The notes under the pieces are model-generated. The model ran no database searches. It saw only the letters and a program-made list of their open reading frames with translations, and was not told the origin of the DNA. The position numbers were made by a program, and so were the translations under genes. This document shows, piece after piece, positions 5,097 through 10,990 of a stretch of 64,000 nucleotides of DNA. Source of the DNA: Escherichia coli (lineage in GTDB: Bacteria; Pseudomonadota; Gammaproteobacteria; Enterobacterales; Enterobacteriaceae). The first letter of the stretch is position 1, and each line of letters opens with the position of its first letter. Where the stretch lies: the NCBI RefSeq assembly GCF_013315695.1, contig NZ_CP054353.1. One strand, 5' to 3'.

Positions 5097-5372
5097 GTGG
5101 CTTCTGTTTCTATCAGCTGTCCCTCCTGTTCAGCTACTGACGGGGTGGTGCGTAACGGCAAAAGCACCGCCGGACATCAGCGCTATCTCTGCTCTCACTG
5201 CCGTAAAACATGGCAACTGCAGTTCACTTACACCGCTTCTCAACCCGGTACGCACCAGAAAATCATTGATATGGCCATGAATGGCGTTGGATGCCGGGCA
5301 ACAGCCCGCATTATGGGCGTTGGCCTCAACACGATTTTACGTCACTTAAAAAACTCAGGCCGCAGTCGGTAA
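5097..5372 (+). CDS. insA: IS1 InsA
   Basis: 91-aa product [30 protein letters not shown]... Confidence 0.9.
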
Positions 5373-5794
5373 CCTCGCGCATACAGCCGGGCAGTGACGT
5401 CATCGTCTGCGCGGAAATGGACGAACAGTGGGGCTATGTCGGGGCTAAATCGCGCCAGCGCTGGCTGTTTTACGCGTATGACAGGCTCCGGAAGACGGTT
5501 GTTGCGCACGTATTCGGTGAACGCACTATGGCGACGCTGGGGCGTCTTATGAGCCTGCTGTCACCCTTTGACGTGGTGATATGGATGACGGATGGCTGGC
5601 CGCTGTATGAATCCCGCCTGAAGGGAAAGCTGCACGTAATCAGCAAGCGATATACGCAGCGAATTGAGCGGCATAACCTGAATCTGAGGCAGCACCTGGC
5701 ACGGCTGGGACGGAAGTCGCTGTCGTTCTCAAAATCGGTGGAGCTGCATGACAAAGTCATCGGGCATTATCTGAACATAAAACACTATCAATAA
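5291..5794 (+). CDS. insB: IS1 InsB frame (expressed as InsAB' by -1 frameshift)
   Basis: 167-aa frame overlapping insA; IS1 transposase signature. Confidence 0.85.
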
Positions 5795-5956
5795 GTTGGA
5801 GTCATTACCTTCTAATTGATATGCAATTGTTTACTAAAAGTTATTAAAAATGGGGCGTGGAAACGCCCCCAAAATAAAGGGTAATATATAACAGAAGGTT
5901 TATATAGTAAGAAGCAAGGTAGTGCTTCTAAAGGAAGTGGCTTGAGGGCTCCACTT

Positions 5957-5997: not shown

Positions 5998-6007
5998 GTA
6001 AGTCAGA

Positions 6008-7090
6008 TTAGAACTGATAAACCAGACCTACAGCGACGATGTCGTCGGTATCAATACCAGCTGTTTTGGTAAACTTACTATCGTCAATTAAGTTGATTTT
6101 GTAATCAACAAAAGTGGACATGTTTTTATTAAAGTAGTAAGTAGCACCGACATCGACATACTTGACTAAGTCTCGGTCACCATGAACACCAAGGTCTTTA
6201 CCTTTTGACTGAAGGTAAGCAACAGATGGACGCAGACCGAAGTCAAACTGATATTGTGCTACTGCTTCAAAGTTTTGTGCTTTGTTTGCAATATGGTTAT
6301 TACCAAAAACGGTCATATTCTGAGTTTCAGAATATGTGGTAGCCAGATAGATATTGTTCGCATCATATTTCAGGCCTGCAGCCCATACTTCCGCATTTTT
6401 GCCGGAGGCATTGAATTTGCTCTTACCATAGGCGACCTGACCGTCAGTGCGATCTGATTTAGCATAGGTTGCACCCACGCCGAATCCTTCATACTCATAA
6501 GTAGTGGAGAAACCGAAACCATCACCATTGGCTTCAGTTACGTCAGTGCGGTCATTTTTACCCTGATACTGAGCAGCAAAGTTCAGGCCATCGACCAGAC
6601 CAAAGAAGTCGTTGTTACGATAAGTTGCAACACCAGTAGTGCGACCAGTCATGAACACATCTGTTTGGGTCCAGGTATCACCACCGAATTCTGGCAGGAC
6701 GTCAGTCCACGCACCGATGTCGTATGCTACACCGTAGTTACGGCCGTAATCGATTGAGCCGTAATCACCAAATTTCAGGCCTGCAAATGCAAGACGGGTT
6801 TTGTCTTTGGAAGAACCTTGAGATTCAGCACGGTTGCCTTTGAATTCATATTCCCACTGACCGAAACCAGTCAGTTGATCGTTGATTTGGGTTTCACCTT
6901 TGAAGCCAAGACGGGCATAAGTAGTATCACCATCATCTGCATCATTAGAGGAGAAGTAGTGCTTGGCATTAACTTTCCCGTATAGATCCAGCTTGTTACT
7001 GTCTTTATTATAAATTTCAGCTGCCTGAGCAGACATCGCCATCAGTACTGATGCAGCTACAGCAGAAATTGCCACTGTTAATTTTTTCAT
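6008..7090 (-). CDS. nmpC: Prophage-encoded general porin (NmpC/OmpD family)
   Basis: Signal peptide [23 protein letters not shown], porin beta-barrel, C-terminal ..VAVGLVYQF; uninterrupted. Confidence 0.8.
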
Positions 7091-9026: not shown

Positions 9027-9524
9027 ATGAAATCATTAACCCTCTTCAATCAACCAATTCGTATCGGTGAAGATGGCATGATCTGCCTCACTGATATGTG
9101 GAAAGCCAGTGGTAAAAGTGAATCTGAATCGCCTTACCACTACCTGCGAAACAAGCAGACCAAAGAGTTCTTAGCCGAGCTGGAGAAAAACCACGAATCT
9201 GTGGTTTTTACTGAGCGCGGTGTACACGGTGGAACATATGGCGGGAAGTTTGTTGCTTACGATTATGCGGCTTGGTTAAACCCCGGGTTCAAGTACGCGG
9301 CCTATAAAGTCCTCGATGACTACTTCACCGGAGAACTTCAGCATCGCAACAGCTTAAGTGCGCAGCTCAACATGAAATGTCATGAGTTTGACCAGAAGAA
9401 AGACATGGCGAGCTTCTGCGGACAAGGGCTGGCAGCATGGCGCTATACGAAGCCAGTGTTGGTCGCTGAGATTAACTCCCTGGCTAACCAGCTGCAGATT
9501 ACGATCCCCGGGCTTCCGGGATGA
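9027..9524 (+). CDS. KilA-N domain protein (165 aa)
   Basis: KilA-N signature (GMICLTDMWKASGK..YHYLRNKQTKEFLAEL..GTYGGKFVAYDYAAWLNPGF). Confidence 0.6.
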   Translation: MKSLTLFNQPIRIGEDGMICLTDMWKASGKSESESPYHYLRNKQTKEFLAELEKNHESVVFTERGVHGGTYGGKFVAYDYAAWLNPGFKYAAYKVLDDYFTGELQHRNSLSAQLNMKCHEFDQKKDMASFCGQGLAAWRYTKPVLVAEINSLANQLQITIPGLPG

Positions 9525-9778
9525 GTGATCGTGTTATTGAATGCGCCTCCAGAGCGGGGCGCGACTTCTCAGAGTTCATGAAAGGCGAGAAGGGCATGAT
9601 GGAAGCATTGGCCTCGGTGGATGAGTTTGGCGAGCAGCTGCGCCTCAACGGCTGTGTCAATCATCACTTTGTTAGCTACATGATGCGGAACTCGATCATG
9701 CAGGCATTCATGGACATGGCAAAAGCCGAGAGGAAAGAAGAGCGCCGGCGTAAGCGAGCGGAAGCAAAAGCGAAGTAG
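9521..9778 (+). CDS. Hypothetical 85-aa protein with strongly basic C-terminal tail
   Basis: ATGA overlap with the KilA-N gene; ends ..AKAERKEERRRKRAEAKAK. Confidence 0.45.
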   Translation: MSDRVIECASRAGRDFSEFMKGEKGMMEALASVDEFGEQLRLNGCVNHHFVSYMMRNSIMQAFMDMAKAERKEERRRKRAEAKAK

Positions 9779-10064
9779 CCATTACAAAGCCTATCTACGG
9801 GTGGGCTTGATAATGGCTTATACCCTACACGGGATAACTTAACTGATATCCCTTTTAAAGGATAAAGGTATTCAAGCCTGACACATCATGCGCTGTATCG
9901 TCGCCGTGTTCCCGTATTAACAGAGACCGTAGCCCGACGGGGAACTCCTTCTGCGCGAGTGTGCGGGAATAATCAAAAACGATGCACACCGGGGTTACCG
10001 GGTACACATATTTCATCATGCCAGCGAGTCCGGTTCTGGCACGGAAGAAACCGGACGTTATGAT

Positions 10065-10491
10065 TTAGTGCGGAAATATTTGTGTAGTGTTCTGAATGTT
10101 CTCAGTAAAGAGTAATGAATTATCAAAGGTATAGTAATACCTTTTGTTTTCGTGGATATTTGTAATCCATCTGAAAACCCCTGCTGTAGCAAGATTTTTC
10201 CTGTATTCGTAAAATGATAACTCTCCTGATTTGAATCCTTTTAAGGTGGCTTCTATAAGGCATTTATTTTTTTGAAAATCTTACATTTACAACCTTACCC
10301 TGTCCTTTTATTAAAACCGTATTATCGTTTTCAAGAACAAGATGAATATTCTCTGTGGCTAAATAGTAAATGTAATGTGAGACATTGTGACGTTTTAGTT
10401 CAGAATAAAACCAGTGATAGTTTAAATTATTTCGCACTTTATCGAATATTTGTTTAAAAATGGCAACCTGAGCCATTGTAGTACCTTCCAT
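10065..10491 (-). pseudogene. AT-rich moron gene (lambda orf-78-like as recalled), split by a 1-nt frameshift at a homopolymer tract
   Basis: 75-aa N-terminal ORF ends at a stop inside an A7 run (T7 on + strand, 10267-10273); a ~68-codon C-terminal continuation is open in the adjacent frame to 10065. Confidence 0.45.
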
Positions 10492-10533
10492 GTGATATGA
10501 GGGGGCGTAGTCTGCACGATTATCTAGATTGCT

Positions 10534-10767
10534 TCAATCTGGTCTAACCTGTTTTCTGAGCAATTCAGTAATGTCACTCTTTTCTTTGTTTGCTTCAGGC
10601 GAAACTCTTTTTTCTGAGCACAGTCTCCGGCGGCAGGCTTCAATGACCCAGGCTGAGAAATTCCCGGACCCTTTTTGAACAAGAGCGATGTTAATTTGTT
10701 CAATCATTTGGTTAGGAAAGCGGATGTTGCGGGTTGTTGTTCTGCGGGTTCTGTTCTTCGTTGACAT
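10534..10767 (-). CDS. Arc/Mnt-type ribbon-helix-helix DNA-binding protein (77 aa)
   Basis: Basic N-terminus, beta-strand RNIRFP, helices NQMIEQINIALVQKG and SGNFSAWVIEACRRRL. Confidence 0.55.
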   Translation of the reverse strand: MSTKNRTRRTTTRNIRFPNQMIEQINIALVQKGSGNFSAWVIEACRRRLCSEKRVSPEANKEKSDITELLRKQVRPD

Positions 10768-10949
10768 GAGGTTGCCCTGTATTCAGTGTCGCTGATTTGT
10801 ATTGTCTGAAGTTGTTTTTACGTTAAGTTGATGCAGATCAATTAATACGATACCTGCGTCATAATTGATTATTTGACGTGGTTTGATGGCGTAGATGCAC
10901 GTTGTGACATGTAGATGATAATTATTATCATTTTTCGGGTCCTTTCCGG

Positions 10950-10990
10950 CGATCCGACAGGTTACGGGGCGGCGACCTCGCGGGTTTTCG
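10950..10990 (+). other. cos site (cosN, 12-nt cohesive end gggcggcgacct at 10967-10978)
   Basis: ..gatccgacaggttacg|gggcggcgacct|cgcgggttttcgctatttatg.. matches the lambda cohesive-end junction. Confidence 0.85.

Follow-up and report, generated by a model that had tools for sequence, protein, structure and literature searches.

The stretch of DNA analysed here, referred to as the window, comprises 64,000 nucleotides of Escherichia coli contig NZ_CP054353.1 (assembly GCF_013315695.1) and contains a lambda-type prophage. About 200 bp left of the cohesive-end site cosN of this prophage, two genes are located on the minus strand between positions 10065 and 10767: one for a 77-amino-acid (aa) protein assigned to the YlcI/YnfO family, followed by an AT-rich gene of the DUF1398 family, whose reading frame is broken at a run of seven adenines (A7). 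With a probability of about 0.85, we regard the latter as an ordinary, rare pseudogene rather than a genetic switch: the prophage is decaying, and one base has been inserted into a homopolymer of this gene. The gene pair is already known, widespread and of uncharacterised function, and its frameshift has been flagged in public annotation before. The significance of the locus is small, because both families have been named and are extremely common, being present even in lambda itself; its modest value lies in a clean case of stepwise prophage decay, combining an IS1-adjacent deletion with a homopolymer frameshift, for which an intact sister prophage is available for comparison.

A Single Additional Adenine Breaks the DUF1398 Gene

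The features of the gene pair are as follows, using the start codon of the DUF1398 gene chosen by the Prokaryotic Genome Annotation Pipeline (PGAP).

10534–10767, minus strand: YlcI/YnfO-family gene (77 aa, Pfam DUF3950, protein WP_001331705.1), identified as an open reading frame (ORF) with profile matches
10501–10507, minus strand: 5′ leader of the DUF1398 gene, CGCCCCC tract differing in length and sequence among relatives
10264–10476, minus strand: N-terminal segment of the DUF1398 gene, 70 codons and TAA from the PGAP start (75 codons from the alternative ATG at 10491)
10267–10273, minus strand: A7 run (T7 on the plus strand), site of the +1 insertion, A6 in intact alleles
10065–10268, minus strand: +1-frame part of the DUF1398 gene (67 codons and TAA), coding for the C-terminal segment with most of the invariant residues of the family

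At the break, the minus strand reads TCA AAA AAA TAA. An earlier sequence-only reading of this DNA had correctly recognised the split frame and its 75 codons from ATG 10491, but had placed the stop inside the A7 run, whereas the TAA (10266–10264) actually lies directly 3′ of it. The +1 frame is open from 10268 for 67 codons plus the stop at 10067–10065, close to the 68 codons counted previously. The likelier start of the gene is the PGAP choice, ATG 10476, with a GGAAGG Shine-Dalgarno sequence 7 nt upstream, and from there the frame stops after codon 70 instead of running through about 136 codons. Removing one A restores a single protein, as had been predicted, with a size of 136 aa (or 141 aa from ATG 10491) rather than the estimated 130 aa. 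The restored protein matched the solved nuclear magnetic resonance structure of E. coli YdfO (2HH8) over residues 1–135 with E = 2.9e-67 and phrog_413 with E = 2.7e-87, and Pfam family PF07166 (DUF1398; YbcV/YdfO/YcgX family) was found in the precomputed annotation of all homologues. An AlphaFold2 (AF2) model of the DUF1398 protein reached a predicted local distance difference test (pLDDT) value of 58, which was too poor for a fold search.

The closest relatives differ from the window by the length of the run. Over the 761-bp module containing both genes, a single A is the sole difference between the window and PhiR49_1 (PV340568), which contains A6 and an intact DUF1398 gene of 411 nt, and the same A6 run and intact 411-nt gene are present in SCU-116 and AH21I008. 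Because these A6 relatives carry the gene intact, the two frame segments are the halves of one protein, and both indeed align to one protein in relatives, contrary to the lack of homology that the sequence-only reading had named as a refutation. Downstream of the run, the A7 allele shows no further differences from its A6 twin, which suggests that the event is recent. The identical locus of assembly MSB1_4I was labelled by PGAP as "DUF1398 domain-containing protein, frameshifted". Because the 70-aa product lacks the conserved C-terminal half, it has presumably lost its function. Of the three options left by the sequence-only reading (pseudogene, sequencing artefact or slippage-prone switch), we consider the first to be correct.

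The A7 Allele Is Rare and Recurs in Independent Assemblies

The frequency of the A7 state was determined with an 81-mer probe centred on the tract. The A7 probe matched exactly in one of the 1,061 complete genomes carrying this allele of the gene, while the A6 probe matched exactly in 813 records, and the other matches listed show substitutions rather than length changes. No A7 match was obtained in the GTDB representative genomes or by an exact scan of IMG/VR. A second scan of IMG/VR, which allowed tract lengths from 5 to 9, gave at least 120 A6 loci, with no A5, A8 or A9 among those listed. The A6 run is peculiar to this allele, where it spans the codons for S-K-N; ydfO and ybcV use other codons at this position.

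A7 as the only example among RefSeq complete genomes raises the question of a sequencing artefact, in which case the true sequence would be A6 and the gene intact. Errors of long-read sequencing occur classically at homopolymers, and two further A7 records (loci L134 and L139; L numbers denote loci used for comparison) come from assemblies visibly riddled with indels, where the A7 state may itself be an error. However, A7 is shared by the window and the MSB1_4I assembly, which is not identical to it: at 99.7% identity, the two differ over 25 kb by 66 single-nucleotide polymorphisms (SNPs), one single-base gap and a length difference of about 43 bp, the SNPs being clustered at 13.7–15.9 kb and 18.9–20.3 kb in a pattern typical of prophage mosaicism. 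A7 was also found with identical gene sequence on three gut-metagenome contigs, two of which carry NODE-style names and coverage values suggesting short-read assemblies, and in draft genomes with few or no gaps relative to the window (L133, L135, L136 and L138). As the A7 state recurs in many independent assemblies, we consider an artefact unlikely.

Among the ten A7 loci fetched, most share the haplotype of the window. A distinct A7 haplotype with 98.2% identity and one gap is present in a clean assembly (L136), and L134 and L139 represent further distinct backgrounds in the error-rich assemblies, so that clean haplotypes with A7 number at least two, that of the window and that of L136. Contigs encoding the exact 70-aa truncated product numbered 118 (in 164 index blocks) and those with the 75-aa form 42, compared to at least 1,000 intact DUF1398 forms in the same counting. 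From these comparisons, A7 is a real, heritable and rare allele that has either arisen more than once or travelled by recombination. The haplotypes do not separate these two routes, since there is hardly any variation in the 3′ half of the gene.

The same data bear on the proposal of a phase-variable contingency switch, in which frequent changes in the length of the A-run toggle the DUF1398 gene. It would be in line with a break located exactly in a homopolymer, with the occurrence of A7 on at least two sequence backgrounds, and with a truncated product present on more than 100 contigs. Yet a flipping population should show both states often, together with other lengths, whereas ON and OFF lengths were not both common in close relatives: the single A7 genome and the absence of A7 from the IMG/VR contigs stand against the at least 120 A6 loci there, without A5, A8 or A9 among those listed, and two of the extra A7 backgrounds (L134 and L139) come from indel-error-rich assemblies. 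Runs of six to seven bases are also shorter than the tracts typical of bacterial phase variation. In addition, the coding run is far less variable than a non-coding neighbour. The leader C-tract at 10501–10507, which is located between a promoter-like −10 hexamer and the Shine-Dalgarno sequence, varies freely in the same loci (CGC5 in 36, CGC4 in 28, CAC4 in 13, and also C6, C7, C8, GGTACCT and others), while the coding A6 run is invariant (120 of the 120 loci listed). A switch, one of the options of the sequence-only reading, is therefore very unlikely. Because the coding run stays constant next to a variable non-coding tract, the pattern suggests purifying selection on an expressed gene, which would normally keep the DUF1398 gene in frame.

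A full-length protein might still be produced from the A7 allele by recoding, either by a +1 ribosomal frameshift at AAA-TAA or by an RNA polymerase dropping one A. The stop codon abuts the run, so a one-base slip would restore the frame, and the RNA polymerase of E. coli is known to slip on A/T runs. However, seven adenines are below the length of efficient slippage, and the A7 state is rare and derived instead of conserved, as would be expected of a programmed site with a functional shifted product. The rescue would need a +1 shift, as the −1 frame stops after four codons (ATA AAT GCC TTA TAG) and the classic A-AAA-AAA −1 heptamer would not help; moreover, neither a stimulatory Shine-Dalgarno sequence nor a structure was identified, and nothing credible was found in Rfam. 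We therefore regard recoding as extremely improbable.

Several points weigh against the simple pseudogene. The presence of A7 on more than one haplotype suggests that the tract is a modest mutational hot spot or that the allele has been spread by recombination, and it may reflect an adaptive loss that has happened repeatedly, or a rare reversion; the assembly of the window might itself contain an error. Furthermore, phrog_35494 is a family of 75-aa proteins matching only the N-terminal half of the DUF1398 protein (E = 1.2e-49), which may mean that broken copies are common enough among phage sequences to form a PHROG family of their own. The members of phrog_35494 have the same length as the 75-aa truncated product of the window.

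Within the pseudogene reading, the locus is the accessory ("moron") position that a lambda-type prophage offers between its lysis genes and cos, and it is read leftward, antisense to the late operon. Replication slippage would have added one A to the A6 run, shifting the DUF1398 frame and cutting the product to 70 aa without its conserved C-terminal half. The gene would then be a recent loss-of-function pseudogene maintained as a heritable but rare allele, in a prophage also stripped of its immunity, replication and Q region by a deletion adjacent to IS1.

The Locus Lies in an Accessory Slot at the Right End of Lambda-Type Prophages

The position of the gene pair relative to the packaging region is defined by these elements.

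10967–10978, plus strand: cosN, the 12-nt cohesive-end sequence GGGCGGCGACCT, with surroundings aligning to the lambda right end
11156 and 11676 (starts): terminase genes Nu1 and gpA (A), following cosN

The sequence-only reading had placed a 77-aa minus-strand ORF and a very AT-rich second gene 200–900 bp left of cosN, all of which agrees with our coordinates. The YlcI-like gene starts 200 bp from cosN and reads away from the terminase genes; the GC content is 31% over the DUF1398 gene and about 50–55% in the flanks. The order of the genes was also given correctly, while the spacer between them measures 42 bp to ATG 10491, or 57 bp to the PGAP start, instead of 43 bp.

Using the 761-bp module as query, we obtained matches in 3,799 of 5,426 complete E. 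coli genomes (about 70%) and in 142 phage records, including that of lambda. Alignment with the lambda right end and related prophages, which the sequence-only reading had suggested, revealed the same module behind near-identical upstream DNA: the stretch of about 200 bp that separates cosN from the start codon of the YlcI gene hardly differs among the window, Qin, lambda and a DLP12-like prophage. The genes behind it are arranged in three layouts, namely cos-ynfO-ydfO in Qin, cos-ylcI-ybcW-ybcV/lambdap78-bor with ybcW on the opposite strand in lambda and DLP12-like prophages, and ylcI followed directly by iss/bor in the prophages of REL606 and an O145 strain, with the YlcI gene next to cos in all of them. 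The locus is therefore the usual accessory slot of the lambda right end, read leftward, in which YlcI is constant and the cargo behind it variable. The features expected of a moron slot are present, with a GC content of 31%, a strand opposite to the late operon, variable cargo and a putative promoter-like site.

The closest K-12 counterpart is the ynfO-ydfO pair of Qin, which likewise consists of a 77-aa YlcI/YnfO protein, a 57-bp gap and a 136-aa DUF1398 protein beside cos and nohA, with a DNA identity of 88% and a PdhR-box-like site in the same place. Unlike the window gene, ydfO is intact and lacks the A6 run at this codon (FSKDRH vs. FSKNKC in the window allele). Lambda and DLP12 share nearly identical cosQ/cosN-proximal DNA and the first 50 or so YlcI codons, and their DUF1398 protein is about 76% identical, but they differ by ybcW (lambdap79) on the opposite strand between the genes, a 64-aa YlcI and bor downstream. 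In the lambda RefSeq record NC_001416 (L005, right end), the phage's own 64-aa ylcI homologue, at about 200–394 of the locus, is unannotated, and lambdap78 is labelled "head protein" and given a length of 177 aa by starting the ORF at a GTG further upstream; the same name is attached to phrog_413, and we saw no evidence supporting it. Many of the protein-search matches were noisy ENA contigs of about 3.5 kb with error-laden copies of lambda YlcI and lambdap78, which at a guess derive from lambda-derived control DNA for long-read sequencing. These copies inflate the apparent diversity of the families and were excluded from the alignments.

The prophage of the window is inserted at the argU/DLP12 site beside fimZ, tRNA-Arg and intD, and its order is int, a few early genes, IS1, an OmpC-like porin gene, the lysis cassette, a KilA-N gene, the YlcI-DUF1398 pair, cos and the head and tail genes. 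PhiR49_1 shares the KilA-N, lysis and OmpC-like porin neighbours and the prophage of AF3 (NZ_OZ547117) the argU site and the IS1, but in contrast to the window, both contain A6 and an intact DUF1398 gene. Beyond the same IS1, AF3 contains 9,340 bp (L149, 5810–15149) which are missing at window positions 5097–5809 and code for a LexA-family repressor (ymfK), replication functions, a methyltransferase, RusA, a second KilA-N protein and the antiterminator quuD. Because the window passes from IS1 straight to the porin gene, its prophage is defective, and because the sister prophage in AF3 keeps both, the lineage has lost the phage regulatory core and, separately, the DUF1398 gene.

The YlcI/YnfO-Family Protein and the Regulation of the Gene Pair

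The product of 10534–10767 is assigned to the YlcI/YnfO family by matches to DUF3950 (PF13132; E = 3.7e-20, covering the full model), to NCBIfam NF041551 "YlcI/YnfO" with 35.2 bits, above the curated cut-off of 30, and to phrog_949; the identical protein WP_001331705.1 is named YlcI/YnfO by PGAP. The sequence-only reading had called it an Arc/Mnt-type ribbon-helix-helix (RHH) protein. At the level of profiles only DUF3950 and YlcI/YnfO matched, and no RHH Pfam family was hit at E ≤ 10 by this protein or any of 19 family members, nor did phmmer and hmmsearch against the PDB return an RHH match. Some support comes from the fold level. The AF2 monomer (pLDDT 70.6) predicts helices at 19–32 and 37–54 with a G-S-G turn between them and an N-I-R-F-P segment before, albeit no β-strand, and hhalign placed residues 12–33 in register with Arc 9–30 (P = 0.035) and aligned Mnt in the correct register (P = 0.18). 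The best Foldseek match of the model was the RHH antitoxin RelB with E = 3.6, below significance, and no significant RHH match was found in this fold search. The protein thus has no significant sequence-profile or Foldseek match to Arc/Mnt/CopG repressors or RHH antitoxins. These suggestive but weak indications are consistent with a protein that probably adopts an RHH fold and might accordingly bind DNA. Its candidate target and the elements around the start of the DUF1398 gene are the following.

10837–10869, no strand: inverted repeat ATCAATTAATACG-N7-CGTCATAATTGAT, 70–100 bp upstream of the YlcI-like start, candidate operator only
10537–10553, minus strand: PdhR-box-like palindrome AACAGGTTAGACCAGAT within the 3′ end of the YlcI-like gene, overlapping a promoter-like −35 hexamer
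10519–10546, minus strand: sigma-70 promoter-like site TAGACC-16-GATAAT, a consensus match at 9 of 12 positions and possible promoter of the DUF1398 gene

The inverted repeat is invariant in the window, Qin, the DLP12-like prophage, SCU-116 and lambda, as is almost everything in the 200 bp or so around it, and it is a possible operator in a region which is conserved as a whole.

Both genes appear among the uncharacterised K-12 genes compiled in 2024 (y-ome; PMC11551758). An imidazolium ionic liquid induces ydfO 12-fold on arrays and about 117-fold by quantitative PCR (PMC4077768), and overexpression of YdfO raises oxidative-stress resistance according to earlier work cited in the same paper. 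Systematic evolution of ligands by exponential enrichment (SELEX) with the pyruvate sensor PdhR picked sites in ynfO>ydfO and in the interval separating ybcV from ybcW; in a pdhR mutant, ybcV mRNA is decreased 10-fold (PMC7660256). The K-12 sequence AAcaGGTcagACCAgaT corresponds to the SELEX site in ynfO>ydfO, and the window retains this Qin-type site as AACAGGTTAGACCAGAT. From the position of these elements, the DUF1398 gene would be transcribed from a separate promoter, located in the terminal part of the YlcI gene, and would respond to a host regulator, presumably PdhR; it would not simply be the second gene of a YlcI-repressed operon. Regarding the autoregulated conversion module suggested before, the locus does occupy the slot holding bor/iss in lambda, DLP12 and REL606, but the published data point to the host regulator PdhR acting on the DUF1398 gene instead. 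No intrinsic terminator was detected on the minus strand downstream of the DUF1398 gene by a terminator scan, and Rfam returned no credible RNA element at the locus.

If the YlcI-like protein were an RHH antitoxin and the DUF1398 protein its effector, the pair could be a toxin-antitoxin-like or defence module and the frameshift an inactivation of the toxin. However, neither a recognised toxin family of type II systems nor an obligatory pairing was found. PADLOC gave no match for the YlcI-like protein and only a chance-level one for DUF1398 (E = 0.023), the pair is split by the opposite-strand ybcW in lambda and DLP12, and many prophages carry ylcI directly followed by bor/iss without a DUF1398 gene. 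The paper that reports the raised oxidative-stress resistance on YdfO overexpression (PMC4077768) does not describe YdfO as toxic, and lambdap78 was scored as non-essential by CRISPR interference (PMC10695390). A module of this kind is highly improbable. A combined scenario is also very doubtful. In it, the A6 run would be a hot spot at which several lineages have lost the function of the gene independently of one another (under selection to shed the gene, or with low-level rescue by RNA-polymerase slippage), and the YnfO-YdfO pair would be regulated by PdhR, with the RHH-like partner controlling or neutralising the DUF1398 protein.

Further Observations on DUF3950 and Neighbouring Genes

In several other loci (L144, 4001–4390, and L145–L148, e.g., L145, 4001–4363), DUF3950 is fused to a DNA-binding domain of the small-terminase type (Terminase_2; SF6 G1P, 2CMP, E = 1.6e-4), and a stand-alone second DUF3950 gene lies just upstream of the fusion. 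The respective islands contain an integrase, a 68–69-aa gene beside it without Pfam match and a primase-helicase, and look like satellites of the phage-inducible chromosomal island type. We considered whether the fusions are the published Rpp packaging-redirection proteins, but at the C-terminus they match the DNA-binding domain of small terminases of the SF6/SPP1 type, none of the Rpp chains was hit, and the Rpp paper mentions neither DUF3950 nor YlcI. DUF3950 may travel with cos or packaging regions.

In the window itself, the OmpC-like porin gene (6007–7089, minus strand) is located between IS1 and the lysis cassette and is annotated as OmpD in PhiR49_1. A 54-aa ORF at 9855–10019 (minus strand), called in several assemblies, had no family match. 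The block at 9027–9778 (plus strand) between Rz and the DUF1398 gene consists of a KilA-N/ORF11CD3 gene (165 aa, phrog_129, with a weak PADLOC match to PDC-S22, E = 1.2e-8) overlapped by an 85-aa gene (phrog_875), and other cargo is found at this position in related A7 loci.
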